From NCBI GenBank assembly GCA_016933985.1, contig JAFGTU010000432.1, positions 1-42,672 of the forward strand: a stretch of 42,672 nucleotides of DNA, written 5' to 3'. A model generated the notes under the pieces. That model was given only the letters and a program-made list of their open reading frames with translations, was not told the DNA's origin and searched no databases. This document shows, piece by piece, positions 3,001 to 33,474 of the stretch. The position numbers and the translations under genes were made by a program. This stretch comes from Sedimentisphaerales bacterium (GTDB taxonomy: Bacteria > Planctomycetota > Phycisphaerae > Sedimentisphaerales > Anaerobacaceae). Numbering within the stretch: the first letter of the stretch is position 1; each line of letters starts with the position of its first letter.

Positions 3001-3142
3001 CCAAGGCTCTATCAGAACCGAATTGGCTACTGAGATCTTTGACCGGGTGCTTCCCGCCGGTGAGATTGACGGTGAGGCTCAAGCGTCTATGATCAGGCAC
3101 ATAATGCAGGAACTCACCTACCGTCAAATCCACCTCGATTAG
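2..3142 (+). CDS. Large repetitive beta-helix/adhesin-like surface protein, 5'-truncated by the window edge
   Basis: The frame is open from nt 2 (NTGVGLV precedes the first codon of track ORF 17..3142), so the gene starts upstream of the window. The N-terminal third consists of ~76-aa Gly/Thr/Val-rich units (SVETNSDG.T.INGGSV..GTQTY.DDVTLG...LTVN..GG.T.FGGAVG), typical of secreted beta-helical adhesin/hemagglutinin-like proteins. The C-terminal part carries a duplicated ~85-aa module. No precise family assigned. Confidence 0.6.
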   Translation, partial: NTGVGLVSVETNSDGATQINGGSVRTTGTQTYDDDVTLGADTELNGSEVTFGKKVDGAGKSLTVNAGGVTIFGGAVGSGGALGSVETDEPGSTAINGGSVSAGTQTYKDDVTLGFPTTVLSGSGIEFRQTLNGASALTVNTTGGGSTVFGGAVGDTTELLSVETNSDGSTRINGDVTTTGDQIYHDDVTVAGGKKLGAGQDIILGDGKTLTGLGALTLEAKRSITLGGAMGGNINAAGKLTLKADAVGGGAGDVHAYGTIRTTSDGIDASGVDLTFEKAVESAAGMKLNATGKLLATGTLDAKGGDVELYASDDADKGINLEDNVTASRDILLKNNTKVSGGKTLQSGHDVVLADGKTLTGEGDLTVNAMSGQIVTDTAGSKLKIHMNENDRTLRLTQKERLLLTTGFEVTDSGDPTPKDTHLVAEVTGGSLEDSTADQWKSITATTQSGIALRGAGNITTNTLNSTAGNISVHSTNGNLRVDGNVNEDLSEDAKGDSIGGVLLRADAGRIYTSGGTNDILNVKITGRSDQAADIGVGLPYDSAKKAAIVIQSHDDLKIGANTTLTAKGTYDPINSNSGAGSVDDRDAVDFQRDGDPIDIAVYLASRNADVAVDSKVTLPTDSGVATMAVDALDTVEFNVDGNGSFQSYDNFHAATRLEAVSRITESLNQAEFEKTLPYAREVAGDLAPSWFKGERYVLRGMPSAEVLGMVGPAPVIPPPVRFDPEDQEEVAVEKEDPNIEDDITLAFGEDFFQVPIEGAMRDMIAVDKEITKEPRLRIQKYWRTLDPNRTPSSGQVILILNKQMETLEEPNRNNVGRFDQALRSNPAVGQWLDAVVGFVVDSNDVFGHDVDKLAGTIQDRFVRRFKATSKVQQYMGRYIRIMAQPRQVAPAQETTVESPAEVVVSEAETVTADASLAQEPTEALFHSSVVPTGRQMLDYWKVIEETSPQVISILSKEVKAVRESANISPPEFEQILLKNPVVGQWADAMLDFLSGIHQIQGSIRTELATEIFDRVLPAGEIDGEAQASMIRHIMQELTYRQIHLD
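23..700 (+). repeat. In-frame tandem coding repeat, period ~228-231 nt (~76-77 aa), at least 3 units, continuing upstream of the window
   Basis: Units start at nt 23, 251 and 482, each opening with SVET(N/D)..G.T.ING and containing TQTY.DDVTLG and (I/V)FGGAVG. Residues before nt 23 look like the end of a preceding unit. Confidence 0.8.
2333..3055 (+). repeat. Duplicated ~85-aa C-terminal module of the adhesin-like protein (copies at 2333-2599 and 2804-3055)
   Basis: Copy 1 is RIQKYWRTL..QVILILNKQMETLEEP...FDQALRSNPAVGQWLDAVVGFV...IQDRFV. Copy 2 is RQMLDYWKVIEETSPQVISILSKEVKAVRES...FEQILLKNPVVGQWADAMLDFL...EIFDRVL. The shared core is NP(A/V)VGQW(L/A)DA. Confidence 0.6.
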
Positions 3143-3188
3143 GCCCGTGGGATGGGTGTTGCTGCAAGAGGTATTCTATCGGCGGCTC

Positions 3189-6100
3189 TCAGTTCTGAAC
3201 CTGTGGAATGTTCACGACGACTCGGAAGCCCACGTCGCAGCCGGTATCGGTGTCTGCCTTGAGTCTGACAGATCTCATGCCTGGAGGGGCAAGACATGAG
3301 CCGCCATACAGGATATAGCTGGATCCATCTTTGCACCATTCCCACACGTTACCCTCAAGATCACATAGCCCGGATCCATTGGTGATAACAGGCTGTGGCC
3401 ACCACTGGTATCCGGTATCGGGCGCGATTTTCGAGGTGTCACGATCTTCAGCAACACCTAATGGTTCTCGATCATTAGTCGCCTTCTGCGGATCGTATGC
3501 TTCCATTGCCATCTTCCATGCACTTGACCTTAGGTGGGCCTTGCGTTGGTTTAGCCCTCTGCTATTGGCGAATTCGATAGCAGCCCGGAATTGGCCCGTC
3601 GTCGGCAAACTGGCTTTGAGACTATTTGCGTAGGCGAACGCTCCATAGTGGGTAACATAAGTCACGGGGTAATCGAATCTCTCTCTGGAGAGGACAAGTT
3701 GATCACTCTTGTAGAGACGTGGACACAGTCCCGGGATTTCAGAATACGGGTTAATAAGCATGATGGACTCCCTTCCATCAACATATCTGACCGAGTTATC
3801 AAGATCATCAAAGCGGATGTTACTCTTTATATCCGGCTGTTTCAGGAACATGTCGTATTGCTCATTTGTTGTCTCGTGAAGAGCCATATAGAAGGGCGGT
3901 ATTCGCTCAGCCGGATCGCTCGTGACATATATGAATATTGCACCAGGCTCGCCCGATCTCAATCTCGTGCCTCTTATGCTTGAATAGACGTATCTTGGCC
4001 ATGCGTTACCCTGGTTGTCCAATTCAAAGCGGTCCTTGAAAGCTCTATCATAGTCTCCATCGGTTCCGGTATCCCAATTCCATACTTTGTCCCAGCTATC
4101 GACAGCCGGAACGAGGGGCATGTAATACATAAATAGATTCGATCCGCTGAACTTCGCATCTTCACTGCGGAAAAGCAGGACATTTCCGTCTATTTCAAGG
4201 TGCGCGAAGCGGTCCGGCTTAATGTGACGCCTGATGGCGGAATAATGGTCACTGAGTTTCCTGAACAAGCCGGGGTACTTGCCGATATCATCATCGTTCT
4301 TCATGATAGCAGGCAGGGGCAGAATCTCGTTGTTGAGCGTTGCCTTAGTGACGCTGTAATCTTCAATAGCAGCCTTTAACGCACCCGGATTGCGTATCTT
4401 GCCCTGTACTTCCAGACGTTGTGTCTTAAGGATTACGTTTTCGATCTTCCTAAATTCATCTTCACATGCCTGCGTGTTGCGGGGATCGTTCGGTATCCAG
4501 CGATACCGTTCTGCAAGCCGGATCCAGCCATCGATATCATTTAGATCATCGGGATAGCCTGGGTCCTTAGCAAGCCCTGTCGTGTCATAGCGTCCCGGCC
4601 AGTTTGGATCTGCAATGAATTTTGAGAGCTTTCCAGCAATTAGGTTGAGATAATCCTTCTTAGCTTTGATTGCGCTCTCATCCATACTAAGCTCCGATAC
4701 ATAAGTCAGAGTCCTGTCATCCACTCCTATGTTCTTTGCCTTTATTTGCTCCTGATGTTTCTTGATGCTGATGAGAAGTGGATCTGGTTCAGGAGGAGAA
4801 ACCAGTCCGTCGTATTCGTCGCATGCCTGTTTGAAGCGTTTTTGTCGCAGATCGTCCTTTGGGAGATTATTGAAATCCGCGAATTTCTGTAGCCTAGTGC
4901 GGACATCGGCCTCTTTCACCACGGCGTCTTTGGGCCATTTTCCTGAGACGTTGGGATCTGCGATCCTTGCCCATGCTGCGAAAATAGCCTCCGGTTGTGA
5001 ATTGTCAGAGCCGGCAATCTTGACCAGTTCACTTGTGTTGAGTTCCTCGGCAATCTCGTTTAGCTTCTTCACTCTGTCGATGAGGGCCTTTACTTCAGGT
5101 TGACTGTTCGCATCAGACATGAATTCATTGAGCGTAGTGATGCCGTTTTCAAACACAGAACTAACGGAACGTCCCCCTCCCCCCCCCGGCTTGTCATCGA
5201 GAACGTAACAGGCATCAAACCATGTCTCGACATTATTGAAATCCTTCGCAACCTGAGATAACCCATTTGCCCATGTCCTGAACTTCTGTGTTTCGTCCCG
5301 GATTAGGGCGGTATTGGGATCGAAGTCTTCGAGGGCTTGAATTTGCCCGGCCAATTCGCTCTGATTCGGTTGTTTCTCAAGATCCAGTCCTGTTCTGCTC
5401 TTAATGATTTCCCGGAGCTTCCTGTCACGAGCCACAACGTACATGTCATTGAGCCCATAGCGCCGGACTTTCCCTGAGCCAATGTCTTGAATGTCTGAAG
5501 GAACAGCCTCATCCAACCTCATAAGATTACCACGAACGGTCTCAACCTCTTCTCTCCGCTTCTGGCTTTCTACGGTCGACGAGTCGGAGACCAATTTTGC
5601 CTGGGCTTGCCAACCACGGTACAAGAACCACGGTTTCTTGACCGAATTACTATCTGCCAAGATTTGCATATTCGGAAGATCGTTCCACCATTTCTGGTCC
5701 CCCATTCTCTTGCGGTACGTGGACTCGCAGGTTATCCAAACGGCTCTTGGCGAGTTGCTGTCCCCCGCAACTGCCTCCTGGCGGCTCGGTCCGTCCATTT
5801 TTTCAAGGAAGTAGCTGATATCATCCAGGTAGTCCTTCGAACCTGGTTGCAGTCCGTCCTTTGGTGTTAGCTTGCAGATGTTCTCTATAGCTAATAACAT
5901 GCGATTCATGTGACTATTTTCTATGCCGTTCGCATCCGCAGGAGGCGGGTTGATACTTTCGATCCAACTTTTCAAAGTGCCTGGAAGCTTGCGTAACCCA
6001 TATTTCCTCAACTCTGGGATTCGTTGGTCGCCAGTTTTCTTAAGGATTTGCCAGGGAGGACCATACCTATTGAAATCGTCGTCGCCAAGATACGCTCTGA

Positions 6101-7208
6101 AATTGCCGATCAACTCTTCCTTCAGTTTCTCTAGTTTGTCGGGATCACGTCCGTTCTTACTAAGGTGAGCGTTTGCATATTCTTTTGCTTTTTTCTGCTC
6201 GTCAGATGTCTTGCTCTCAGGGTCGCTGGCAAGGTTGTCAATATCTTCAACAAGAATCCAGCGACAGACTACAAGCTTGTCGTCGATGTAGGCAGGTAGT
6301 TGTGGCCGGTGTTTATAAAGGTAATTGATCCAACTCGTATTGCTTTCGATATTGATGTGAGGTTTAAGGTGAATGCTTATCAGGAGAATGCCTGCAATCG
6401 CTGTGGCACTCAATGCCCCCCCAATGACAAACCATTTTCGCCGAATGGGTGACCGTGCCAGGGGCTCCATTGCGGCCAATTCTTGGGCCAGTTGGGTGAG
6501 GTCTTTGCTGGTTCGCTGAAGTGCTGCGTCAATCAAGCGGCGGCACAGGTTCCTCCAGTCGTCCGCGCTCTTGCCGAGCGCTCGCCACTGTTCGGAGTCA
6601 GGGATTTGCCGATGGTCCAACATGGCCGATGAGCTGTGCGTTACGAGTTGGTAAATCAACTCGGCAACGTCACGCATGTCGGCCGCCCAGTGGACTTCGG
6701 GGTCGAGATGCCGGCGCGCAACTGGATCGCAAAGCACAACTTCGGCGTTCGGCAGGTCCAAATGCTGGGAGATCAAGATATTGCTGGGCTTGAGGTTGCC
6801 GTGGGGCCGGCCCAAAGCCTGTTTGAGTTCCAGCAGCCCGCACACCACTGACTTGACGATATTGTGAAGCGCTGCGGCACTTAGTCGCACATGCCCATCG
6901 ATAAGCTGCTGGGCCGAGCAGGCGTACTTGTCGGTTGCATAGTACGATCCCTCCGGTGCCGAGCCCTGGTCGTAAACCGGCGCCCAGTGCCCCGCCCCCG
7001 CTGCGGCGGCCTCTTGCTGGACTTTTGCGCTATCGAAAAACGCCTCGGCCTGATTCTTCGTTTCCTCACCCTCCCAAAATGAGGGCGGCCGAAAGACCTT
7101 AATCGCAAATTCTTTCCCCGGCTTGGCTGCTGACCGAGCGCTATAAACCGAATTCAGGCCTTTTTCGTGAAGCAAAACCTCGATGCTGTAGTGACCGAGA
7201 GTCGCCAT
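3189..7208 (-). CDS. Membrane-spanning Ser/Thr-kinase-like protein (degenerate catalytic motifs, probable pseudokinase) with a C-terminal FGE-sulfatase (SUMF1-like) domain
   Basis: aa 1-250 follow the Hanks kinase layout: EFAIKVF, HGNLKPSNILIS in place of HRDLKPxN, LCDPV in place of DFG, and DPE...DVAELIYQLVT. One TM helix is present (WFVIGGALSATAIAGILLISI, about nt 6366-6437). About 800 aa are unassigned. The last ~237 aa (nt 3192-3905) carry FGE-sulfatase signatures: PPFYMALHETTNEQY, YPVTYVTHYGAFAYANSL..LPTTGQF, GNVWEWCKD, YGGS and GFRVV. Confidence 0.8.
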   Translation of the reverse strand: MATLGHYSIEVLLHEKGLNSVYSARSAAKPGKEFAIKVFRPPSFWEGEETKNQAEAFFDSAKVQQEAAAAGAGHWAPVYDQGSAPEGSYYATDKYACSAQQLIDGHVRLSAAALHNIVKSVVCGLLELKQALGRPHGNLKPSNILISQHLDLPNAEVVLCDPVARRHLDPEVHWAADMRDVAELIYQLVTHSSSAMLDHRQIPDSEQWRALGKSADDWRNLCRRLIDAALQRTSKDLTQLAQELAAMEPLARSPIRRKWFVIGGALSATAIAGILLISIHLKPHINIESNTSWINYLYKHRPQLPAYIDDKLVVCRWILVEDIDNLASDPESKTSDEQKKAKEYANAHLSKNGRDPDKLEKLKEELIGNFRAYLGDDDFNRYGPPWQILKKTGDQRIPELRKYGLRKLPGTLKSWIESINPPPADANGIENSHMNRMLLAIENICKLTPKDGLQPGSKDYLDDISYFLEKMDGPSRQEAVAGDSNSPRAVWITCESTYRKRMGDQKWWNDLPNMQILADSNSVKKPWFLYRGWQAQAKLVSDSSTVESQKRREEVETVRGNLMRLDEAVPSDIQDIGSGKVRRYGLNDMYVVARDRKLREIIKSRTGLDLEKQPNQSELAGQIQALEDFDPNTALIRDETQKFRTWANGLSQVAKDFNNVETWFDACYVLDDKPGGGGGRSVSSVFENGITTLNEFMSDANSQPEVKALIDRVKKLNEIAEELNTSELVKIAGSDNSQPEAIFAAWARIADPNVSGKWPKDAVVKEADVRTRLQKFADFNNLPKDDLRQKRFKQACDEYDGLVSPPEPDPLLISIKKHQEQIKAKNIGVDDRTLTYVSELSMDESAIKAKKDYLNLIAGKLSKFIADPNWPGRYDTTGLAKDPGYPDDLNDIDGWIRLAERYRWIPNDPRNTQACEDEFRKIENVILKTQRLEVQGKIRNPGALKAAIEDYSVTKATLNNEILPLPAIMKNDDDIGKYPGLFRKLSDHYSAIRRHIKPDRFAHLEIDGNVLLFRSEDAKFSGSNLFMYYMPLVPAVDSWDKVWNWDTGTDGDYDRAFKDRFELDNQGNAWPRYVYSSIRGTRLRSGEPGAIFIYVTSDPAERIPPFYMALHETTNEQYDMFLKQPDIKSNIRFDDLDNSVRYVDGRESIMLINPYSEIPGLCPRLYKSDQLVLSRERFDYPVTYVTHYGAFAYANSLKASLPTTGQFRAAIEFANSRGLNQRKAHLRSSAWKMAMEAYDPQKATNDREPLGVAEDRDTSKIAPDTGYQWWPQPVITNGSGLCDLEGNVWEWCKDGSSYILYGGSCLAPPGMRSVRLKADTDTGCDVGFRVVVNIPQVQN

Positions 7209-7248: not shown

Positions 7249-7776
7249 TTAGTTGGAGCACTTGTCTCCGGCTACACTGATTTCCCCGCTGTCGATAGTG
7301 ATTTCAAGAGTGCACTTCTTCCAGCATTTCTTATAGTCCAACGACACTGGACGTGGGGTCGGATTGTTTGTGTCTTCATAGGGCAGGATCAGAACATATA
7401 AGTCGACAGCTCCCAGTTGCTTCCAAGTCTGCCATATAGAATCATCCTTCTCCACTGTGCGGAGCATGGTTCCTCCGTTGTCCATCTTGGCCGTTGAGAC
7501 ATTCGGATTGTCTCGGAATTCTATTATCTTCTGGTATCTACCCTGCTCGGCCGCGGTGCGTACGTCACTTATACTTTTCCAATAATCCCTCATCCTGACG
7601 GTGTCCCAACGCCACCTCGCCTTCTCTTCGGGATTAACGCCAACCAAATCCACGCGCAGGCGCCGGTTTTCATACCCAACGGCACGAACATCGATTCTGG
7701 GATCGCAGGTGCAACCCGCCGAGACAACTACTACGCCCAGCCACAACATTTGCCATTTTGACAACGGAATTCTCAT
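7249..7776 (-). CDS. Small lipoprotein (175 aa), a candidate TssJ-like or TagQ-like T6SS outer-membrane lipoprotein
   Basis: Start refined to ATG at 7776: AAGGAG at 7783-7788 lies 6 nt upstream, and the track start at 7809 has no SD. The signal peptide plus lipobox reads MRIPLSKWQMLWLGVVVVSAG|C. The mature part of ~150 aa looks mostly beta. It lies between the 661-aa gene and the kinase/FGE gene. Confidence 0.6.
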   Translation of the reverse strand: MRIPLSKWQMLWLGVVVVSAGCTCDPRIDVRAVGYENRRLRVDLVGVNPEEKARWRWDTVRMRDYWKSISDVRTAAEQGRYQKIIEFRDNPNVSTAKMDNGGTMLRTVEKDDSIWQTWKQLGAVDLYVLILPYEDTNNPTPRPVSLDYKKCWKKCTLEITIDSGEISVAGDKCSN

Positions 7777-7821
7777 GGCCAACTCCTTTCCGCACTCGCA
7801 AATCTTCAATATTTGACGTGC

Positions 7822-9807
7822 TTACTGATCCGTATATCTTTCTAAGTACTTACGAATAACACCTGCAATCTCCCAACTGGCTCGCCAATCGGGGACAATT
7901 AGAGTGCGTGTCTTTATCATAAGGTTTTCCAGTTCGGCACTCGTCTGGTCAAATACCTTATGAAGCCCACCTTGTGGAGCATCTCCATACTCCTTACACA
8001 CGCTATCAGGGCCTGCTCCTGGGAACATACGCACTATAATAGCCAACGCCGACCACCACAGCTTGAGGGGGAAGAGGCCCAGGGCCTCGTCTGGTGTAAT
8101 CTTATCAAACAACAACTGCTGTGGCCCCAGCGGAGCTATCCAGCGGTTGTCGGCTTGGAAGGTTTCTTCCACACGCACACTAAGTCTCTTTGATTCCTCG
8201 TGGGTGGATGCCAAATGGCGAGCCAAACTCAAAACCGCGTCCAGCGCTAGAGGCAGTGTTGTTGAATTGTTGACTAATATGATTCTTGTCGCCAGAACGC
8301 CCAAGGCGTACAGATCGCACGGACTACTCAACAGCGGAATTACTTCAAAGGGAGTCTCGTGCATCGGTATGCCTTCGGTTCTTTTGAGATTTGCCAGATC
8401 GCTGCCGCTTATCTTGTGGGGCACTGTCCTAAAACGCCATTCCCCCGGCGCCATCGCTGAGTCCTTCTCAAGATGGGCATACAGATTGACGGTTCCGGAA
8501 CCGTGGTTGAGTCGCAGCCAGAGAAGGTCATGGTAGAAGAACTCAATTCGCTCCTGGGTGGACAGCGTGCCGTCAACTGTCGTGATTTCATCGGTAGTGG
8601 TCGAGATTTGCCGGATGCGAACTGAGACACGCCCTTTGGCGGGTAGTGACACATTCATCGGGCGATATACTGACGCCTCGCCCGCCGAAGCCGACAAATA
8701 GTATCTGACTCCGGTATTTTCAGCAATCAACGTTATTGTATCACCCGGTTCACAAAGCTCCGCCTTCGCCGTCCACAGATATGGCAAACCTCGGCCAGGT
8801 TGGCCAAGCCTGACCTGGAAACTGGTGTCGCTAATGTTCAAGAGCGGTTTTTGAAGTTCTGATACCAACAGCCTGACCGAGGCTATAATGTCTGCTAACA
8901 ACCGAAGCTTAAGATAGAAGGTCTCCAGCAGACGACCGCTCTTGCCCTGGGATTCGAGGAAAAGCCGACCATCGTCAACCAGCACTGTCTGATCACTCTT
9001 GAGCGAGTCTATCTGTTTTCCGAGGTTAAGCTCCGATTTTCCGTGTTTGAGCCCTCCCCAGGGGACTCCGCTGATAATATCGACGAAGGATTCGAGGCTG
9101 GTCGGAAGGTGCTTCCTCGCCATAACAAAGCCCGCACCCTCATTAAACAGGATGATGGAGTCGGTGTTGTTGCATACTTGAGCCAGCGAGCTTGTACACT
9201 CGTTTTCCGGCGCGCCTTTCGTAACCGGTACAAACAATGAATCGGCCCCGATAGTAGAGATATAAAGATAGCGGTGGAGTGAGCTGGTGTAGGCAGGAAG
9301 CCCTTTTTGCCTAAGCAAGCCATCGTCAGTGCACAATGTTAATGGTGACTTGGAGTTCTTCTCGATCGGATGAACAGGAGAAAGCGAAGAAAGATCAAGA
9401 AATGTGGGCAGAGGATGTTTGGACTCCCAGCCCGTCCTGACTATTTGATCGGCACCAAGTGCCAGAAAGCCTCGACATTGTTGAATCCATCGATAGTCCA
9501 AGATGCTGTTTGAGAGTGATTGTCGATACGCGGCAGGGCTGTTCGAAAGGCCTTCGTTATTCTGGACCCAAAGCTCGATCCATTCGTGGACCTGGCCGGA
9601 GACATCGAGCACGCACCCCAAATACACCTTCGTGTCGATCCTGTCGCGAAGCAAAACGAGGTGGCCGCCAACCGGATCCGCTTCCCGCCTGGCCAATATG
9701 CAGATCCTCAGCGATGCCCTTGCTTGGTCCGCGCTGATAGGGACGGCCACGTAACCCTGGGGTAAAGTTGCAGAAGCATTCTTGGTTTCAGAAGGAGTCA
9801 CTGACAA
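7822..9807 (-). CDS. Hypothetical 661-aa protein with a degenerate protein-kinase-like C-terminal half
   Basis: Long uninterrupted ORF co-oriented with the T6SS arm. aa ~296-335 (LLADIIASVRLLVSELQKPLLNISDTSFQV) resemble kinase helix E plus catalytic loop without the HRD Asp. aa ~497-515 (CDLYALGVLATRIILVNN) resemble subdomain IX (D-x-[WY]-[AS]-[LF]-G-[VI]). The only start codons near the 5' end are TTG (9807) or GTG (9801), without a clear SD, so the start is uncertain. Confidence 0.55.
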   Translation of the reverse strand: MSVTPSETKNASATLPQGYVAVPISADQARASLRICILARREADPVGGHLVLLRDRIDTKVYLGCVLDVSGQVHEWIELWVQNNEGLSNSPAAYRQSLSNSILDYRWIQQCRGFLALGADQIVRTGWESKHPLPTFLDLSSLSPVHPIEKNSKSPLTLCTDDGLLRQKGLPAYTSSLHRYLYISTIGADSLFVPVTKGAPENECTSSLAQVCNNTDSIILFNEGAGFVMARKHLPTSLESFVDIISGVPWGGLKHGKSELNLGKQIDSLKSDQTVLVDDGRLFLESQGKSGRLLETFYLKLRLLADIIASVRLLVSELQKPLLNISDTSFQVRLGQPGRGLPYLWTAKAELCEPGDTITLIAENTGVRYYLSASAGEASVYRPMNVSLPAKGRVSVRIRQISTTTDEITTVDGTLSTQERIEFFYHDLLWLRLNHGSGTVNLYAHLEKDSAMAPGEWRFRTVPHKISGSDLANLKRTEGIPMHETPFEVIPLLSSPCDLYALGVLATRIILVNNSTTLPLALDAVLSLARHLASTHEESKRLSVRVEETFQADNRWIAPLGPQQLLFDKITPDEALGLFPLKLWWSALAIIVRMFPGAGPDSVCKEYGDAPQGGLHKVFDQTSAELENLMIKTRTLIVPDWRASWEIAGVIRKYLERYTDQ

Positions 9808-10076: not shown

Positions 10077-10367
10077 TTATCCTCCAATGAGGACGGTGGG
10101 GCAGCATGGGGGTCCGACTGCCGTCGTTACAGGCACCCCTGTAGCCGGGTTAGCGCCAGTCACTTGACTGGTCAGTCGCGTGGCAGGCCGACCGCCGATC
10201 AGGACGGTCATACTGCCCAAGGTTACGGCCCCCACGCAGACACCGCCCGAGACCAGATCCCCAACCACCGACGCCGGCATATTACCGACCAAAACGGTAG
10301 GAACGCCAGGCCCTGTAATAGGGTCGCCAGTAACCGTCATATCGCCAACACGTGCCGCAGGAAGCAT
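10077..10367 (-). CDS. PAAR-domain spike-tip protein (96 aa, minimal PAAR)
   Basis: There are three PAAR-type motifs: MLPAARVGDM, GNMPASVVGD and GGRPATRLTS. The protein is Gly/Val/Thr-rich and has the typical size. GGAG lies 8 nt upstream of the ATG. Confidence 0.9.
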   Translation of the reverse strand: MLPAARVGDMTVTGDPITGPGVPTVLVGNMPASVVGDLVSGGVCVGAVTLGSMTVLIGGRPATRLTSQVTGANPATGVPVTTAVGPPCCPTVLIGG

Positions 10368-10561
10368 ACCTGATTCTCCATATATTTATAAAACATCGTG
10401 GAACCACAGCGGTAACCATGGGAAATTTATGCATATCACCAAATCTTGTTGCCGGGGGTATAATCAATTTCCTTAATTCATTACATTAAGTTCATACCCT
10501 ATCGGGAATATAATTATAGAGCAACATACACTGTTATATAAAATTGCTTTTCTTAAAATCC

Positions 10562-11719: not shown

Positions 11720-14686
11720 TTAATGTGTGATATGATATTCCGCAAATTTTGGCTGCATGCTCCAATAATTCTGTCGCTCTATGCTATAGGTCACACGCCC
11801 TTTTTTACAATTCCTCTTCACCTTGACTTCGGAGACCCACGGGGTGGAGAAATCATAGTCTTGGGTAGCTTCGTAATGCTCGCCATAGGGGGTATGCTGG
11901 AACTTAATCGCCATATACAATCGGCGACCGATGGTGTATTGTAGGCCGCGCAGGCCTGCCGTATCTGTAACGCGGTAAACGACTTTTCCCTGCTCAAGAG
12001 TCGGCGTCATAGAGACCTTCTCGGTCTGCAAAAATTGCCAATTTTGATACAGAGCGATACTCTCAACCTTCGCGCCGAATTTATTCTCTAACTCATTGAT
12101 CATCTTGGTATTGGTCAGCTTGAAGTCATACTGACCAAGGGTATATTCCTCACCTTCCGCAAAATTCGCCTGTAAGCATAGCTGCAGATCGCTTTTGCTA
12201 TACGCATCCGTTTTTCCGTACGCGGCAAAATAGTCCAGTGCCACCGCGAACCGTGGCCCAAAGCCGATCGGTAACGCGGCTACCCTTTTGACCGACGTAT
12301 CCGCATTAAACACCACCTTGATTCCCGAACAACGGCCGTTGCCGAACTCTCCGAATTCGTCTCTCTGATTGCGCCTGGTTAAAGACCCGCTGGCGTCGGA
12401 AACGATAATCCAGGTGGGATCTTCCTGAATATGTGCTTCAGTTCTGGCGTTTTGACGAATCTCATCCCAGTCCTGTTTGAACATTCCTCCTGGTATCGGA
12501 GGCAATGCCCCATGCGCCGCCGCACTGCAAGAGAGCCTGCCGGACGGCACATCAACCGGTACCCGGTAGTATTGGGTCGATAAGGTTCCGGATTTCCCCG
12601 GTATTAATTTGGAGCTCTTTTCGTGACCGGTAATCGCATAGATGGCGCGGCGGTGCGTGTGCCCGCTCAGAAGGCATTGGATTTTCCGCTCGGCGATTCC
12701 CTCTCGGTACAGACGCACGCGATTCAGGTGAAACGTACCCATGTCGTTTTTGTTGAACTGATGCTGTTTGCCCCAAGTGTAGTGCACCTCCCCCTTACCC
12801 GTTATGGCCTTATATTCGGGGATCATATTGTGGTAGCTGACAAAAGTGAAATGCGAGAAAAGAATCTTTTTCCTTTCGCGCTGATTATCCCGTTCCTTCA
12901 GCTTATCCAATAAACTAACGACCTGATCTGATATCTGATCTGTTGACAATGGCAGATGTCCCCGCCCCTGTTCCGTGCGACCGGGAACCAGGGTGATCAT
13001 GTCTTCATCATAACCCCAACCCATCCCCATCAGGGACTGTTGCGGCAACTGCGCCGCATAATCGCAGAACGGAGTGAATAGCAGGTAAAACCATCGAAAA
13101 TGATCTGCTTTGAATGCAGTCTTTGGGGTGCCCATGGAGTTGCGTTTGACAATTCGATCGTAGCTTTTACCGAAACACAAAGCGGCCTCATACATCGTCA
13201 GGTTATGGCTGGCCGGGATAAAGGCGTCCGTCTTCTTTCGAACCTTCGACGGCTTGCTGCCCAAAAGCGTCGGAAACATAGCCACCGGTTCCAAATAACC
13301 ATCGTGGTTGCCGCTTACCACAAAGACGGGTTTAGCATTGTCTATATCCTTCTTATAGAAGTCCACAATAAGCGAGTAAACGACCAGAAGATCGACATTG
13401 TCTTTGTAATATTTCAGGTAGGTTTCTTCCGGTTTTCGTTTTTTCAACCCTAAAGATTTTTTCGTCCGATCCGTCCATCGTTGTTTGAGGCTTAAAATTT
13501 CGCGGACTTCCTCGGGCGTCTTGCCGCGGGCCATATTTTCGCACCAGCTATTTCGGATAAAATCGAGGATGTCGCCTGTGATCAACACCACGTCCACCTC
13601 GGGATCCTGGGCGAAACGGTCCAGTATAAGCTTGGTGTTGTGTGAGGCGATGTTGACCATCTCGCCCAGCGGCTGAAAATCATCGTGGTTAATAATTTTC
13701 TGTGTGCTGTTGGCCAGAACCTGCTGACGTGAATTGATGTGGATATCCGAGATCTGTCCGATATTGAGGGGACGGAAATCATTAACCATGTAGAAGAAAA
13801 CAGGATGATAGGCCTGGACAGGGTTGTCCGGATCCAGTTCCCCCACCGCCACATCGTCGTCATTAGGGCGGTTAGTGATACTGCCCTGCCTGACCCTAAA
13901 ACCATACTGGCCCTGGTTCATCTCGGCAGCTTTATTCTTGAACTCATGGTATATAAGATAATCTTGATCATTTTTCTGATCGGCACCGGGGAATATCCAA
14001 GGCATATGGGGCTGGTACTTAAAATCAGGTCTCTTTTCGGGGGGGGTGATTTGGGAAATTGTGCGTTTCGGATTCTTTGCCGTAGTCTCCTGAGAATTCT
14101 TATACAAATTCACCAGAGCCGAGACCCTGACCGATACCCAATATACTTCGGTGAACTTCTGGTCTTTATAGAATCTCTGCACCCTTTCATCGACCAGACC
14201 CAGAAAGTGCCCTTTTACTTTGTTCTGTTGGTCGGCATCCAAATCCTGGCTGGTCTGGTAGATCGTCTTGCTCTTGAGGGTCCCGAGATATCCCACATGG
14301 ATGTTCTCGGTCAGATTGTCGGTTATAACCATATTGGGATCATACTTCTTTTCCGCATCCAGACCCTTGACAATCTTCAGTTGTTTATTGACACACTGCC
14401 GTATCTTGTTTTTAACCGGGTCTGAGTTTTTTTCTCCCTCCAAGGTATCTCCCTTGAAAAGCATCAGCAATTCTACAAAATAATCACCGTCCTCTTCGCC
14501 TGTTTTAATCATGACCACCTCGGGAGTGCACAACGCCGGGTAGAGGATCATCGCAGGCAAGCCCCCGGATTGTTCGTCAACCACAGCACCTTCACCTCCG
14601 GCCAGCTCTTGCTGAATATTAACCTCGAGGTTTTCCGCCTGCGGTGCCGGATAGACCCAAAACAAATCACCTAACTCTGCCGGCAT
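11720..14686 (-). CDS. Large (988 aa) calcineurin-like metallophosphoesterase-domain protein, a candidate VgrG/PAAR-associated T6SS effector
   Basis: All five metallophosphoesterase motifs occur in order: SDIHIN (DxH), ITGDILDF (GDxxD), VSGNHDGY (GNHD), FSHFTF (H) and LSGHTHRR (GHxH), spanning about nt 12640-13770. About 300 aa at the N-terminus and 310 aa at the C-terminus are unassigned. There is no signal peptide. AAGGAG lies 7 nt upstream of ATG 14686. Confidence 0.8.
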   Translation of the reverse strand: MPAELGDLFWVYPAPQAENLEVNIQQELAGGEGAVVDEQSGGLPAMILYPALCTPEVVMIKTGEEDGDYFVELLMLFKGDTLEGEKNSDPVKNKIRQCVNKQLKIVKGLDAEKKYDPNMVITDNLTENIHVGYLGTLKSKTIYQTSQDLDADQQNKVKGHFLGLVDERVQRFYKDQKFTEVYWVSVRVSALVNLYKNSQETTAKNPKRTISQITPPEKRPDFKYQPHMPWIFPGADQKNDQDYLIYHEFKNKAAEMNQGQYGFRVRQGSITNRPNDDDVAVGELDPDNPVQAYHPVFFYMVNDFRPLNIGQISDIHINSRQQVLANSTQKIINHDDFQPLGEMVNIASHNTKLILDRFAQDPEVDVVLITGDILDFIRNSWCENMARGKTPEEVREILSLKQRWTDRTKKSLGLKKRKPEETYLKYYKDNVDLLVVYSLIVDFYKKDIDNAKPVFVVSGNHDGYLEPVAMFPTLLGSKPSKVRKKTDAFIPASHNLTMYEAALCFGKSYDRIVKRNSMGTPKTAFKADHFRWFYLLFTPFCDYAAQLPQQSLMGMGWGYDEDMITLVPGRTEQGRGHLPLSTDQISDQVVSLLDKLKERDNQRERKKILFSHFTFVSYHNMIPEYKAITGKGEVHYTWGKQHQFNKNDMGTFHLNRVRLYREGIAERKIQCLLSGHTHRRAIYAITGHEKSSKLIPGKSGTLSTQYYRVPVDVPSGRLSCSAAAHGALPPIPGGMFKQDWDEIRQNARTEAHIQEDPTWIIVSDASGSLTRRNQRDEFGEFGNGRCSGIKVVFNADTSVKRVAALPIGFGPRFAVALDYFAAYGKTDAYSKSDLQLCLQANFAEGEEYTLGQYDFKLTNTKMINELENKFGAKVESIALYQNWQFLQTEKVSMTPTLEQGKVVYRVTDTAGLRGLQYTIGRRLYMAIKFQHTPYGEHYEATQDYDFSTPWVSEVKVKRNCKKGRVTYSIERQNYWSMQPKFAEYHITH

Positions 14687-14762
14687 CGTACAACTCCTTC
14701 AATTTGTTCTTTCTTAGGATACATTCAACTCACAAGGTCTTGAGAAACCCTTTTCCCGCGTT

Positions 14763-17854: not shown

Positions 17855-20641
17855 TTAGTTGAACGAATATGTAAATTCGCTATCCTCAACTCCTATATGG
17901 ACGCGTTTTGCGGTTTTGCCTTCCATCAGGCGCGTCAAGAGTTCCTCGCTGATTCTCGGGAGCAGCGTGTGCGTCAGGATGGCGTCAACCATTCGAGCCC
18001 CGCTTTCAACCTCCGTGCACCGGCCGACGACAAGGGCCACAACGTCATTGTCATAGCTGAACGGTATCCGGTGATTCTGTTGTGTACGGCGTCCAATACG
18101 GTCTAACTGCAGGCGAGTAATAAGTTCCAGCGTTTCGTCGTTCATTGGATAGTAGGGCACGACTACAAGGCGCCCAAGAAGAGCCGCAGGAAAGACCTTA
18201 AGCAATGGGCCGCGAAGGGCTTTGCCTATTGCTTCGGGTTCGGGCATCAGCTTCGGGTCCTTGCACATCTGCATTATCATGTCGGTGCCGACATTGCTTG
18301 TTAGCAGAATGATAGTATTCTTGAAATCGATTAGACGACCTTCGGCATCTTCCATCTGACCTTTGTCGAACACCTGAAAGAATATCTCATGCACGTCATG
18401 GTGCGCTTTTTCGACTTCATCGAGCAGGACAATACTGTACGGTCGGCGTCGCACTGCCTCTGTGAGCACCCCGCCCTCACCATATCCGACGTACCCGGGC
18501 GGTGAACCTTTGAGCGTGGAAACCGTGTGGGCTTCCTGGAACTCGCTCATATTGATGGTGATTAAGTTATTCTCACCTCCATACAGGGCTTCAGCCAAAG
18601 CAAGTGCCGTTTCAGTCTTGCCCACGCCGCTGGGCCCAACCAATAGCATAACACCGATAGGCTTATTCGGATTCTCTATGCCGGCTCGCGATGTCCTGAT
18701 TCGTTTTGCGACTGCTTCCAGCGCGTGATCTTGACCTATAACGCGACCCCGAAGCGTATCCGACAATTTCAGCACTGCTTCGATCTCATCCTTCACCATC
18801 CCCCCCACAGGAACACCCGTCCAGTCGGCGACTACTGAACCGACAGCTCGCGCGTCAACGCACGGAAGAATAAGGGGCGTTTCTCCCTGCAGCTCATAGA
18901 GCTTCTTCTGCAGCGATTTGAGTTCTCTTAGCAATTTGTCCCTATCCTTGGCTTCTGATTTAGCCGATTTATCGGGCTTAGCCTTAGCATGCACGTCGGC
19001 ATCTACTGTCCGCGGGTCGTCAACCTTTTTGGCCTTCGTCTTTGCAGTTCCTTCTTCCGCCGTCTCTGCTTGTTCAATCGTACACTCTCCGGATTTGCGC
19101 AGCTTGGCTCGTATGTCTAAAATGGTATCGACCAAGGTCTTTTCTTCCGCCCAGCGTTGCTCCAGCTTACCCAATTTCACACGTTCCGCCTCAAGCTTCT
19201 CCTTAGTCTCGGATTCGCGTTTCTTGTGATCAACGCCCATTGAGCGTTCTCTGGCGATGATTTCCAGCTCTGTCTCCAACGCTTGAATTCGTCGCCGGCA
19301 GTCTTCCAATTCCGGCGGCACCGCATGTTGGCTTATGGCCACTCGTGCGCTCGCCGTATCGGTCAAACTGACCGCTTTGTCGGGGAGCTGACGTTCGGGA
19401 ATGTAACGGTGTGAGAGACGAACCGCGGCATCCAGGGCCTCGTCCAAAATCTGCACACGATGGTGTTGTTCAAGATTACTGGCCAATGCCCGCATCATTG
19501 TCAACGCCTTGTCTTCTTCAGGCTCATCGACCTTGATAACCTGGAATCTGCGGGTAAGGGCAGGGTCTTTTTCGATATACTTCTTGTACTCGCTCCACGT
19601 TGTCGCTGCGATGGTCCGCAACGTGCCGCGAGCAAGCGCCGGCTTGAGCAAGTTTGCCGCGTCGCCCGTTCCGGCTGCCCCCCCGGCGCCAATGAGCGTG
19701 TGGGCCTCATCGATGAAAAGGATGATGGGCTTTGGCGAACCCTGAACCTCTTCAATGACCTGTCGCAAACGGTTCTCAAACTCGCCCTTTACACTGGCGC
19801 CGGCCTGCAGCAAACCGACATCCAGCACGCGCAGTGTCACGTCCTTGAGCGATGGCGGCACGTCACCTTCGGCAATACGCTGGGCGAAACCTTCGACAAC
19901 CGCCGTCTTACCGACGCCCGCCTCGCCTGTCAGAATCGGGTTGTTCTGGCGGCGACGCATTAAAATATCGACGATCTGCCGGATTTCTTCGTCCCGCCCG
20001 ACAATCGGATCCATTTCACCGCTACGAGCCCTTTCTGTCAGATCCACTGAAAATCTCGCCAGGGCCTCCTGCTTTCCCATTGCAGCCGGCGCCATATCGC
20101 GGGCGCCCCGGCTGGATTCGCCCTCGGCCCGCATTGAACTGCCGTCAGTCGCCGAGAGGGACTCCTCAGCCGAGCCCCCGACGATTTTTGCAAAGTCATC
20201 CGTCAACTGCTCCAACTTGATCTTGCCGAATTCGCCCGAGGTTCCCAGCAGAACATTCTTGAGACCGCTGGTCTTGAGAATCCCCACTATCAAGTGGCCC
20301 GTGCGAATACACGATTCACCGAATAAAAGAGTCCCATATACCCATGCACGCTCCACGGACTCTTCAAGATGAGGTGAGAGATCCGAAATCGACGTAGATC
20401 CCCGCGGCAACCGGTCAAGTTCCTCAGTCATGTCTTTGGCGAGCCTGGAAGGGTCTATCTCAAAGTGGCGCACGATCCGGTGGATGTCTGAGTCCTGCAA
20501 TTGCAGAATCTGGTGAAGCCAGTGTACCATCTCGACATACGGATTGCCTCGCAGTTTGCAGAAGACTGTTGCGCTTTCAATAGATTTGTAGCCAAGACTG
20601 TTCAGCTTGCCAAACAAAGACGCCCGATTGATTTCAGCCAT
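17855..20641 (-). CDS. clpV: ClpV (TssH) AAA+ sheath-recycling ATPase
   Basis: ClpV-type N-domain: INRASLFGKLNSLGYKSIESATVFCKLRGNPYVEMVHWLHQIL. Walker A1 GEAGVGKT and Walker B1 ILFIDEAH. Walker A2 GPSGVGKT and Walker B2 VLLDEVEKAH. Start refined to ATG 20641 (GAGGG lies 7 nt upstream); the track start at 20647 is a TTG. Confidence 0.95.
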   Translation of the reverse strand: MAEINRASLFGKLNSLGYKSIESATVFCKLRGNPYVEMVHWLHQILQLQDSDIHRIVRHFEIDPSRLAKDMTEELDRLPRGSTSISDLSPHLEESVERAWVYGTLLFGESCIRTGHLIVGILKTSGLKNVLLGTSGEFGKIKLEQLTDDFAKIVGGSAEESLSATDGSSMRAEGESSRGARDMAPAAMGKQEALARFSVDLTERARSGEMDPIVGRDEEIRQIVDILMRRRQNNPILTGEAGVGKTAVVEGFAQRIAEGDVPPSLKDVTLRVLDVGLLQAGASVKGEFENRLRQVIEEVQGSPKPIILFIDEAHTLIGAGGAAGTGDAANLLKPALARGTLRTIAATTWSEYKKYIEKDPALTRRFQVIKVDEPEEDKALTMMRALASNLEQHHRVQILDEALDAAVRLSHRYIPERQLPDKAVSLTDTASARVAISQHAVPPELEDCRRRIQALETELEIIARERSMGVDHKKRESETKEKLEAERVKLGKLEQRWAEEKTLVDTILDIRAKLRKSGECTIEQAETAEEGTAKTKAKKVDDPRTVDADVHAKAKPDKSAKSEAKDRDKLLRELKSLQKKLYELQGETPLILPCVDARAVGSVVADWTGVPVGGMVKDEIEAVLKLSDTLRGRVIGQDHALEAVAKRIRTSRAGIENPNKPIGVMLLVGPSGVGKTETALALAEALYGGENNLITINMSEFQEAHTVSTLKGSPPGYVGYGEGGVLTEAVRRRPYSIVLLDEVEKAHHDVHEIFFQVFDKGQMEDAEGRLIDFKNTIILLTSNVGTDMIMQMCKDPKLMPEPEAIGKALRGPLLKVFPAALLGRLVVVPYYPMNDETLELITRLQLDRIGRRTQQNHRIPFSYDNDVVALVVGRCTEVESGARMVDAILTHTLLPRISEELLTRLMEGKTAKRVHIGVEDSEFTYSFN

Positions 20642-21048
20642 TGCCAAGCCCTCTCATTCTATTGTTGTGCCTTGAGTAGGTAGATGCTTCAAATCAGTGA
20701 TCCTCTTGAGAAAGGCATCTTTCGCTGGGTCGAAGCCTCTAAACCGGCCCTATGATAAGTACCGTCCGTTGAATTTACACAAATAACTCCTGATTAGCGG
20801 ATAGGCCTTCGTTGCCGCGGCCAGATGCCTGCTTATATCAAATTGCACGATTGTGTCAACTCCTCTTTTCCCTACCTTCCTCTGGAATAACGAGGGTAAT
20901 GGCGCGCTGCAAACAGGACTGCACGGCCAAAAAACCAAATTCTCCAGGGCCAAGCCAAGTTCTCCACCTTGCGCGCAGAATATAAACGGCCAGAAAAAAA
21001 GAAACCCAAATCGCAACCGAATCCGTGATGACACGCATTCTTACTGAA

Positions 21049-32535: not shown

Positions 32536-33474
32536 GTGCAAATTGGAGATTTCTTTGATATGGGCAATGATGAAGAGTTCAAACAGCAAGTTAGAGTAAC
32601 GGCAAGTCGTCTTCGTTTGGTCGGAGTTGATTTTGCCGATGAGGACCAGGGGTCGAGGGTTGGGTGCCTTTGTGAGGAGATTGAACGCGCTTTGAAAAGT
32701 ATCGTTCCCGACAAGCGGAGGGCATTTCTGGAACAGTTAATGGAGAGATTTCCAACGGAATGGTTGTGTGGTCAGCCTGCGCAGGGCGAACCTGGGACCG
32801 AACAGGATAAGCTCGATGACCCAGATTACCTTGCCAGCCGGCTCGTGGAGCAACTTCCAAAGCTTACTCCTGAAAAGAAGAACTCAATTGCCGCGGATCT
32901 TCAGAACGCAGGTTTAGGATTGTTGGCAGAGAAAGCCTTTTCGGATCAATTGGTGCAGGATTTCAAAGCAGCACTTGGGATTGCCAGCTCGGCAGAGATT
33001 GACGGAGATCGACTGGTCGAGCTTGTGAGCATACTTGCGAAGTTCATTGTTTCGCTTGAGCCCAAAATATGGCACGTTTGGAGGAGCTTGTCGCCAAGAT
33101 CAAGAATTCGTCGCCCCAAGAACCTCACGGGTACTCTGGGACAACTGGTAGTTGCGGATTCTAAGGTGTTCCCGGGCCAGGTCGAGCAAGAGCTGGCAGC
33201 GTTGGGCGGATTAATCATGTCGGTTATGGCGGCGGTGAACGAGGCAGGGAGCCAGTTCTCCCGGCAATATGTCAGGAGGTTCTCGCCTTCAGCAATTTCA
33301 GGTTTGGTGGAAATGGAAGATAAAGGCGGGTTCTTCGCCGGCAGCCAGGAAGCTAAATGTTGGCGCAAGTATTGTGAGCTAACAGGACATTTGACGGAAG
33401 ATTCGGTTGTGGCGGAGATGAAGCGTATTATCGCTGATTACGTGGAGTCTCTGATGCAAAGGAGGGGTGGATAA
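32536..33474 (+). CDS. Hypothetical 312-aa (or 304-aa) soluble protein embedded between tssG and tssK
   Basis: Uninterrupted ORF in operon context, ending 21 nt before tssK. The track start is a GTG at 32536. ATG 32560 (MGNDEEF) has a GGAG about 10 nt upstream and may be the true start. The protein is predicted helical and acidic at the N-terminus. I see no lipobox, TM helix, FHA or PP2C motif. Confidence 0.6.
   Translation: MQIGDFFDMGNDEEFKQQVRVTASRLRLVGVDFADEDQGSRVGCLCEEIERALKSIVPDKRRAFLEQLMERFPTEWLCGQPAQGEPGTEQDKLDDPDYLASRLVEQLPKLTPEKKNSIAADLQNAGLGLLAEKAFSDQLVQDFKAALGIASSAEIDGDRLVELVSILAKFIVSLEPKIWHVWRSLSPRSRIRRPKNLTGTLGQLVVADSKVFPGQVEQELAALGGLIMSVMAAVNEAGSQFSRQYVRRFSPSAISGLVEMEDKGGFFAGSQEAKCWRKYCELTGHLTEDSVVAEMKRIIADYVESLMQRRGG

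Follow-up and report, generated by a model that had tools for sequence, protein, structure and literature searches.

A metallophosphoesterase-family protein encoded between vgrG and PAAR genes of a type VI secretion locus: a candidate cargo enzyme with a pentapeptide-repeat partner

The type VI secretion locus and the metallophosphoesterase protein

We analysed a 42,672 nt stretch of contig JAFGTU010000432.1 from a Sedimentisphaerales bacterium (assembly GCA_016933985.1), hereafter the window, which contains a complete type VI secretion system (T6SS) locus and, within it, a gene for a 988 amino acid (aa) metallophosphoesterase-family protein (MPE). The plus strand carries tssA, tssB, tssC, hcp, tagJ/impE, tssE, tssF, tssG, tssK, tssL and tssM. 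The minus strand carries one tightly packed operon extending from clpV through an FGE-sulfatase gene, in the order clpV, vgrG, a PG_binding_1 protein (234 aa), MPE (988 aa), a pentapeptide-repeat protein (373 aa), PAAR, a 661 aa protein, a 186 aa lipoprotein and a 1339 aa FGE-sulfatase protein (Table 1). Intergenic gaps measure -16 nt between the VgrG and PG-binding genes, 76 nt between the PG-binding and MPE genes, 36 nt between the MPE and pentapeptide genes and 194 nt between the pentapeptide and PAAR genes. A preliminary description of this DNA had placed the MPE gene between vgrG/LysM and pentapeptide/PAAR genes behind a strong Shine-Dalgarno sequence. The neighbours, their order and the Shine-Dalgarno sequence are as described, but the "LysM" protein is securely a PG_binding_1 protein with only a LysM-like N-terminus. 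A hint in the same description that the gene is AT-rich did not hold, nor did the horizontal transfer from foreign DNA that it might suggest: its GC content is 49.2 % against 52.0 % for the window (tssF 51.2 %, tssM 52.8 %), and its third-position GC (GC3, 0.59) falls within the range of its neighbours.

The assignment of the 988 aa open reading frame (ORF) to the metallophosphoesterases was upheld by its translation, by a match to Pfam Metallophos (PF00149) and by the invariance of its motifs in 32 family sequences. The Pfam match scores 35.7 bits against a gathering cut-off of 21.5 (E=1.5e-8) and spans aa 308-477 only, because long insertions restrict it to the first half of the profile. Five ordered motifs are present, D314-I-H316, G371-D372-ILD375, G459-N-H-D462, H612 and G675-H-T-H678, giving the metal ligands D314, H316, D372, N460, H461, H612, H676 and H678. 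In the family alignment D375 is also invariant, and N495, E500 and R679 essentially so. A hydropathy scan and inspection of the N-terminus found no transmembrane (TM) segment in MPE and, in agreement with the preliminary description, no signal peptide.

An AlphaFold2 (AF2) model built on a 32-sequence alignment forms a compact single body (mean pLDDT 77, pTM 0.87). Foldseek comparison with the PDB gave 13 matches at E≤1e-3, every one a metallophosphoesterase, with E-values of 1e-5 to 1e-3, target-normalised TM-scores of about 0.4 and identities of 9-14 %. The best matches were SMPDL3A (8w6p, 5fc1; top match E=1.2e-5, target-normalised TM 0.42, 9 % identity), SMPDL3B (5kar) and Lmo2642 (2xmo), and purple acid phosphatases (3zk4, 1xzw, 2qfp) were also among them. 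For the SMPDL3 chains, 3zk4 and 1xzw the identity is 9-10 %. Judged from its motifs and its model, MPE is a binuclear metallophosphoesterase by fold, of superfamily PF00149. It shares the binuclear fold and the order of the metal motifs with SMPDL3A, SMPDL3B and the purple acid phosphatases, enzymes that act on nucleotides and lipid head groups by breaking phosphodiester or pyrophosphate bonds; unlike them, it lacks a signal peptide and carries extra N-terminal (~300 aa) and C-terminal (~160 aa) regions without known relatives.

A profile of the 32 family sequences found no PDB sequence at E≤1, so that the relation to solved subfamilies is at the level of the fold only; searches of PDB sequences with the single protein and with N-terminal and C-terminal profiles gave nothing usable. 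Membership of the SMPDL3/ASMase-like subfamily was considered and rejected, the similarity being one of fold with neither a detectable sequence relationship nor a signal peptide. The Mre11/SbcD-type nucleases, which the preliminary description had offered as a possible subfamily, are ruled out as the closest fold by the ranking of the PDB matches, headed by SMPDL3A/B and the purple acid phosphatases; there is no Mre11/SbcD chain among the matches at E≤1e-3. Comparison with viral models in BFVD gave nothing at E≤1e-3 and a weak phage SbcD model at E=2.3e-3. PPP phosphatases are absent from the PDB matches at E≤0.04, and the MPE sequence reads SDIHIN, TGDILDF and SGNHDG, which does not fit the PPP signatures GDxHG, GDxVDRG and GNHE.

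The regions flanking the Metallophos match stay unassigned, as they were in the preliminary description. For the N-terminal 300 aa, searches of PDB sequences and of Pfam gave nothing significant, and neither did a search of PDB sequences with the C-terminal 250 aa. In Foldseek the flanks gave only weak beta-sandwich matches, which for the C-terminal region were Ig-like/beta-sandwich folds at E>0.04. When 11 N-terminal regions of family members were scanned against Pfam at E≤10, the only matches were single-member ones at chance level (DUF1062, E=0.021; DUF5073, E=0.2). Modelled alone with AF2 the N-terminal 300 aa are poor (pLDDT 54) and become confident only in the full-length model, which suggests a region integral to the globule and not a free loading domain.

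Table 1 Coordinates of the MPE gene, its regions and other features of the window
Feature	Position	Strand	Remarks
MPE-family protein, 988 aa	11720-14686 (stop codon included)	minus	ATG start; uninterrupted translation
MPE N-terminal region, aa 1-300	13787-14686	minus	family-specific; conserved ILYPxxxTP and QLK motifs
MPE catalytic core, ~aa 301-830	12197-13786	minus	all metal ligands; region common with the Massilia homologue
MPE C-terminal beta-rich region, ~aa 831-988	11723-12196	minus	family-specific, conserved
Shine-Dalgarno GAAGGAG	14694-14700	minus	7 nt upstream of the MPE ATG, read from the sequence
ClpV	17855-20647	minus	
VgrG spike, 778 aa	15452-17788	minus	Phage_GPD E=9e-109, Gp5_trimer_C and Phage_base_V; first gene of the spike/cargo sub-operon after clpV
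PG-binding partner, 234 aa	14763-15467	minus	PF01471 E=1.2e-15; N-terminus LysM-like, E=0.025
Pentapeptide-repeat protein, 373 aa	10562-11683	minus	PF13599 E=1.5e-25
PAAR spike-tip protein, 96 aa	10077-10367	minus	PF05488 E=1.3e-11
61 aa ORF	10282-10467	minus	other frame; just upstream of the PAAR gene and overlapping it
661 aa protein	7822-9807	minus	no family match
186 aa ORF	7249-7809	minus	lipoprotein signal and lipobox
1339 aa protein	3189-7208	minus	C-terminal FGE-sulfatase domain
1041 aa adhesin-like ORF	17-3142	plus	window edge, outside the T6SS operon
312 aa protein	32536-33474	plus	weak match
TssM, 1404 aa	35614-39828	plus	unusually long
338 aa protein	39849-40865	plus	weak match

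Family distribution and gene neighbourhoods

To delimit the family we ran an exhaustive profile search against 1.84 billion cluster representatives, of which 536 matched at E<1e-3 and 302 also at E<1e-30. The majority have 850-1000 aa and match from near the N-terminus to the C-terminus, with E-values down to 1e-228; with full-length homologues at such values the feature lies far beyond chance. A word-indexed search found only three relatives, whether queried with the single protein or with the 32-sequence profile, all full-length and with the motifs. All five motifs are invariant in the 32-sequence alignment. When the 150 best representatives and the window protein (151 sequences) were aligned to the family HMM, the eight metal ligands were complete in 141, the other 10 being truncated fragments, and zero substitutions were seen; the complete set also occurs in every complete MPE copy of the loci described below. 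Invariant metal ligands in all complete members point to strict selection for catalysis and not to a decayed fold, and MPE is predicted to be catalytically active.

The family occurs in at least eight phyla (Pseudomonadota, Myxococcota, Bacteroidota, Acidobacteriota, Desulfobacterota, Latescibacterota, Fibrobacterota and Spirochaetota). Organisms named in the locus records include Pseudomonadales, Cupriavidus, Massilia, Enhygromyxa and other Myxococcota, Cytophagia, Bryobacteraceae, Desulfatitalea, Latescibacterota, Fibrobacter and Leptospirales. No match was found by tblastn against plasmid and phage collections, and PADLOC defence-system models gave none for the MPE, pentapeptide or PG-binding proteins.

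Gene neighbourhoods were taken from the three first homologues, 18 genome loci and 13 metagenome loci, leaving 31 distinct loci once duplicates and one very short contig had been dropped; neighbour genes were called by phmmer with the window proteins and a few locus proteins as queries against all locus ORFs. A pentapeptide-repeat gene directly adjoins the MPE gene in 27 of the 31 (19 downstream, 8 upstream), and two of the four loci without an adjacent pentapeptide gene are contig ends. The PG_binding_1 partner is present in 20 loci, and VgrG-, PAAR- or spike-like genes in 22, a lower bound at the sensitivity of phmmer. Eight loci have a PAAR or PAAR-like gene beside the MPE gene (L001, L004, L007, L009, L010, L014, L028 and L030).

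In a Massilia locus (L020) and a metagenomic locus (L032) the gene order is vgrG-DUF4123-MPE, the DUF4123 domain being confirmed by Pfam. DUF4123 proteins are established adaptors encoded just upstream of a cargo effector that is loaded on VgrG, and as a gene order this is the classical adaptor-then-effector arrangement. After MPE, L020 continues with the pentapeptide gene; the contig of L032 stops within MPE itself, and a further locus (L031) has a DUF4123 gene after the pentapeptide gene. The window itself has no DUF4123, DUF1795 or DUF2169 adaptor gene. We considered whether the DUF4123-linked homologues had exchanged their N-terminal domain, as BLASTP aligns residues 290-829 only, and rejected this: the Massilia protein keeps an ILFPxxxTP-like motif, which indicates a divergent N-terminal region and not a replaced one.

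The module is found with more than one type of machine. In two loci (L001 and L004) the MPE/pentapeptide pair lies directly before clpV-tssB-tssC-hcp-vgrG, with a 289 aa PAAR-like gene immediately before the MPE gene; TssC and TssD of L001 match Bacteroidetes-type Pfam models. In a metagenome-assembled genome of Leptospirales (L013, 2078-16470) a 1213 aa MPE homologue with an intact catalytic set lies between two tail-fibre genes (Peptidase_S74/G2), and upstream of it are a gpV-like spike, a gp25-like sheath initiator and Baseplate_J. By gene content this is a phage-tail-like contractile module, of tailocin or extracellular contractile injection system (eCIS) context, and not a T6SS. Presence both in a Bacteroidetes-type T6SS and in a phage-tail-like locus suggests that the module moves independently of any core machine, as cargo cassettes do.

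The preliminary description had allowed that orthologues might prove to be housekeeping enzymes unlinked to T6SS genes. An enzyme with no T6SS role, one acting for example on nucleotides or cell-wall precursors and placed here only by coincidence, would be in keeping with L005, where the trio lies among metabolic genes (amidohydrolase, solute-binding, AMP-ligase), and with several loci that show no T6SS gene in the available DNA, nine of the 31 lacking a spike gene there. Orphan effector modules away from the core cluster are however common in T6SS biology. Spike genes accompany the family in 22 loci across at least eight phyla, DUF4123 adaptors precede the MPE gene in two loci, and the patchy distribution, with plasmid and phage collections giving no match, is unlike that of a housekeeping gene. 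We therefore regard a chance association as very improbable.

The closest homologue is encoded in a locus (L002) with the same gene order as the window, including the 661 aa, lipoprotein and FGE-sulfatase genes. Identities between the two are 84 % for ClpV, 65 % for VgrG, 60 % for the PG-binding protein, 53 % for the 661 aa protein, 42 % for PAAR, 38 % for MPE and 34 % for the pentapeptide protein. MPE and its pentapeptide neighbour have thus diverged together and much faster than the machine, a pattern typical of effector/partner pairs.

L002 is also the only locus in which a kinase-like gene accompanies MPE, which bears on the idea that MPE is a regulatory phosphoprotein phosphatase, replacing the PP2C enzyme (PppA/TagG) of the threonine-phosphorylation pathway and opposing the 1339 aa kinase-like protein. 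The window operon encodes that protein, with its kinase-like N-terminus, single TM segment and FGE-sulfatase domain; weak FHA_C-like and TagF_N-like proteins are present, and no PP2C phosphatase was found in the locus. The kinase-like gene is nevertheless absent from the other 30 loci, MPE lacks PPP-phosphatase signatures, and its fold matches phosphodiesterases and purple acid phosphatases first. Such a role would also leave the linkages to pentapeptide, PG-binding, PAAR and DUF4123 genes and the 988 aa size unexplained, and we hold it to be highly improbable.

Mode of action of MPE and its partner

A number of homologues are fused to modules of the cell wall. One (P0009) has N-terminal OmpA and PG_binding_1 domains and two (P0071 and P0087) an N-terminal Peptidase_M23 domain, and an OmpA-like motif was recognised by eye in P0011, P0092, P0095, P0097 and P0103. 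The LysM-like segment of the window PG-binding protein recurs N-terminally in P0021, P0029 and P0048 and internally in P0003, P0017 and P0020. This segment is below threshold in the window protein (E=0.025), and weak matches were seen in 7 of 10 proteins scanned, the window protein included. The window PG-binding protein has no TM segment or signal peptide, and neither a signal peptide nor a clear TM segment was found in the fusions examined, P0087 being a borderline exception. Domains that bind or cleave the cell wall but lack an export signal are expected of proteins delivered to the periplasm via a contractile injection system, and these fusions would fit poorly with a protein retained in its producer's cytoplasm.

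The pairing and fusion of MPE with PG-binding (LysM-like, PG_binding_1, OmpA-like) and M23 modules without export signals suggests action in the bacterial cell envelope or the peptidoglycan-precursor pool, which we consider the most likely place. Lipid II/undecaprenyl-PP, UDP-MurNAc-pentapeptide and membrane phospholipid head groups are candidate substrates. Given the SMPDL3/purple acid phosphatase-like fold and the peptidoglycan-related partners, the most economical guess, though a tentative and rather doubtful one, is that MPE cleaves a pyrophosphate or phosphodiester linkage within an envelope lipid or a precursor of peptidoglycan. If the substrate were a peptidoglycan precursor pyrophosphate, the functional analogues would be colicin M and TelC, a lipid II phosphatase toxin of the Esx/type VII secretion system (T7SS), whose folds and secretion systems are unrelated to those of MPE.

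The preliminary description had argued, among other readings, for a eukaryote-directed toxin from the lack of an immunity-like ORF with a signal peptide after the MPE gene; an ORF with a lipoprotein signal does follow, three genes downstream, which may encode TssJ instead of an immunity protein, and the pairings with cell-wall modules point instead to the bacterial envelope. An effector injected into amoebal, fungal or animal cells, there to hydrolyse a host phospholipid, nucleotide or GPI-type phosphodiester, would suit a fold closest to the eukaryotic SMPDL3A/B and the lack of an obvious periplasmic immunity gene adjacent to MPE. It would suit as well the closest homologue (P0001, L002 4141-7719), a two-enzyme protein in which an OTU cysteine-protease domain (PF02338) is inserted after the GHxH motif, since bacterial OTU domains are known mostly from effectors acting on eukaryotic ubiquitin. 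This insertion is however found in one homologue only among those examined, whereas the modules that recur as partners or in fusions belong to the bacterial cell wall (PG_binding_1, OmpA-like, M23). In 27 of 31 loci MPE has a closely linked partner gene, as is usual for antibacterial effector/immunity pairs, and the family is spread through free-living environmental phyla. A eukaryotic target thus seems improbable.

T6SS cargo effectors are a known kind of protein, and what appears to be new here is the catalytic class and the type of partner. MPE resembles adaptor-loaded cargo effectors (the DUF4123/Tap-Tec-dependent TseL, the Tle lipases, VgrG-3) in its position between vgrG and PAAR, the absence of a Sec signal, the DUF4123 gene directly upstream in two homologous loci, the linked partner gene and a faster divergence than the core genes. 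Its association with peptidoglycan-binding modules recalls VgrG-3, which has a PG_binding_1-containing C-terminus. It differs from the characterised cargo effectors in the literature searched in being a binuclear metallophosphoesterase, in having as partner a cytoplasmic pentapeptide protein instead of a typical small immunity protein, and in its uniform length of ~900 aa instead of a modular toxin domain. Full-text literature searches for T6SS combined with metallophosphoesterase, calcineurin-like or phosphodiesterase effectors found no characterised member of the class, in line with the preliminary description, which had held a calcineurin-like phosphoesterase effector not to be an established class. 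Unverified predictions of 'metallophosphatase' domains downstream of VgrG in Neisseria have been made in a genomic survey (PMC12046857).

A second precedent is offered by the Tvp accessory complexes, made up of TvpA/DUF2169, the pentapeptide protein TvpB, TvpC and a DUF4150 PAAR (Monlezun et al. 2026, PMC13373197). The same paper describes TvpB as clamping PAAR and reports that neither TvpAB nor TvpB was ever found among secreted proteins (PMC13373197). By analogy, MPE could be a non-secreted accessory of the spike, a metallophosphoesterase-fold protein in place of TvpA/TvpAB. While the machine is being assembled it would, jointly with the pentapeptide 'seat belt', wrap and steady the VgrG-PAAR tip or occupy the baseplate cavity; it would be released before firing, with the active site serving assembly or regulation. 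As in the Tvp systems, a large protein and a pentapeptide protein lie between vgrG and PAAR in the window, and the order MPE-pentapeptide-PAAR mirrors tvpAB-tvpB-(tvpC)-paar1. Short VgrG-like proteins reminiscent of TvpC occur near the module in four loci (L008, L012, L013, where there is a weak DUF3540 match, and L026), the architecture is uniform across phyla, the module stands next to ClpV-TssBC in L001 and L004, and the model is a compact single body and not a toxin with a flexible loading domain.

Several features nonetheless separate MPE from these complexes. At the sequence level DUF2169, the domain by which Tvp systems are defined, was not detected in the window cluster, with no match in the window ORFs scanned, nor in the 11 N-terminal regions at E≤10, and the window PAAR is a canonical PF05488 protein and not DUF4150. 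The large protein is an enzyme with eight strictly conserved catalytic ligands, which a chaperone would not need. DUF4123 adaptors precede MPE in L020 and L032, treating it as cargo, and loci with long flanks (L005, L015) hold the MPE-pentapeptide pair with no detectable spike genes. Fusions to PG-binding and M23 domains without export signals would make sense only if the protein leaves the cytoplasm. We consider a non-secreted accessory role unlikely, although less so than a eukaryotic target.

The reading that we favour, with modest confidence and on the strength of gene order and conservation, is that MPE is T6SS cargo loaded on the spike, an enzyme belonging to no characterised class and served by its own pentapeptide partner. 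Some form of secreted effector is, taken overall, at least as probable; MPE is probably injected, and would then be of a type so far undescribed for T6SS-like machines. Lacking an export signal, MPE would be synthesised in the cytoplasm, loaded onto the VgrG-PAAR tip along with the LysM-like/PG_binding_1 partner and fired into a neighbouring cell, where it would hydrolyse a phosphoester or pyrophosphate bond. The cytoplasmic pentapeptide partner would act either as a beta-helical plug, that is as an immunity protein, or as a TvpB-like clamp on PAAR. Of the cargo proposal in the preliminary description, the core is strengthened by the spike linkage in 22 of 31 loci, the DUF4123 loci and the invariant ligands, while its points on AT-richness, a eukaryotic target and Mre11/SbcD fell away.

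The pentapeptide protein of the window has a pI of 4.6, a net charge of -25 and no signal peptide, and its NCBIfam matches are far below the cut-off (50 against 240 bits). The family's pentapeptide linkage (27 of 31 loci) exceeds its spike linkage (22 of 31), and the protein occupies the immunity slot in the order vgrG-DUF4123-MPE-pentapeptide, which together favour a partner dedicated to the enzyme. Self-protection is a known function of pentapeptide proteins, McbG, AlbG and Qnr being examples, and the near-obligate adjacency fits a protective partner, as the preliminary description had proposed. An inhibitor or immunity protein that keeps the enzyme inactive in the producer is possible, if somewhat short of an even chance, and by analogy with TvpB we give just the same weight to a 'seat belt' clamping MPE to PAAR. 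As with McbG, AlbG, Qnr and MfpA, a beta-helix protein that is strongly acidic is encoded next to a putative toxic function; those proteins protect DNA gyrase from small-molecule or peptide toxins, and the acidity is not conserved in the family partners, whose pI ranges from 4.3 to >8. A database gene call (P0151, 363 aa, 100 % identical) starts the window pentapeptide protein at Met11, position 11653; this start may be the correct one, and the gap after the MPE stop would then widen from 36 to 66 nt.

A number of observations weigh against MPE as a delivered cargo enzyme. Its secretion, its toxicity and its binding to VgrG or PAAR are candidate properties predicted from sequence. The order large protein-pentapeptide-PAAR parallels the non-secreted TvpAB-TvpB-Paar1, and the family, with identities of 25-35 % across phyla and a uniform architecture of ~900 aa, resembles a conserved accessory component rather than a polymorphic toxin. 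No clear periplasmic immunity gene is adjacent to MPE, and a cytoplasmic pentapeptide protein would be an odd immunity protein if MPE acts in the periplasm. The variable charge of the partners led us to reject a general role for them as polyanion (DNA) mimics. Among the 150 best representatives none is fused to VgrG, PAAR, Rhs, MIX or FIX. The M23-fused P0087 has an N-terminal hydrophobic segment (aa 26-44) just above threshold that may be a membrane or export segment. The nine loci without a spike gene and the metabolic surroundings of L005 also belong here.

If MPE is secreted, the binuclear metallophosphoesterase would be a new catalytic class in the T6SS effector repertoire. It would define a directly testable family that spans at least eight phyla, comprises at least 300 sequence clusters and has an obligate pentapeptide partner, and link pentapeptide 'seat-belt' accessory proteins to cargo delivery. 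Given the same module in a phage-tail-like locus, it would also exemplify an enzyme common to different contractile injection machines. If it is a non-secreted cap instead, it would represent a DUF2169-independent, enzyme-carrying analogue of the Tvp system. In its broadest form the proposal would make PAAR(-like)/PG-binding/MPE/pentapeptide an ancient mobile spike module of proteobacterial and Bacteroidetes-type T6SS and of phage-tail-like particles, and the first metallophosphoesterase toxin class of contractile injection systems, cleaving a precursor or envelope-lipid bond, with the pentapeptide protein, as a novel type of clamp or immunity protein, blocking the active site until firing; we think it unlikely that all of this applies.

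Other features of the window

Elsewhere in the T6SS locus, only the IcmF-related N-domain was recognised in the long TssM, and the two proteins encoded on either side of it have weak matches (312 and 338 aa; T6SS_FHA_C, E=8e-4; TagF_N, E=0.045). TssJ was not recognised in the locus. The 186 aa ORF, which has a lipoprotein signal and lipobox (MRIPLSKWQMLWLGVVVVSAGC; …VVVVSAGC), 31 % identity to its counterpart in L002 and no Pfam or NCBIfam match, may be either a TssJ that has diverged or an immunity protein of the periplasm. The adhesin-like ORF at the window edge abounds in Gly/Thr-rich repeats and likewise has no Pfam or NCBIfam match.

The 1339 aa protein matches PADLOC PD-T4-6 models over aa 3-156 (E=2e-7), models which we take to be protein-kinase-like, and has its TM segment at aa 258-281; in domain order it looks like a sensor kinase of the PpkA/TagE type. 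The 661 aa protein is kept among the fetched loci only in L002, where its gene again lies downstream of PAAR, from which a sheath-like gene on the reverse strand separates it, and is followed by the lipoprotein and kinase-like genes.

Two observations concern the spike genes. The 61 aa ORF that overlaps the PAAR gene begins MIIPPATRFGDMH, which is PAAR-motif-like, and may be what is left of a duplicated PAAR; alternatively, a frameshift may have affected the PAAR gene. In L002 a 144 aa ORF of its own (3004-3438; phmmer E=5e-48) is the counterpart of the final ~140 aa of the window VgrG; judged from the two sequences, this is a gene fusion or fission at the spike C-terminus, beside the cargo genes.

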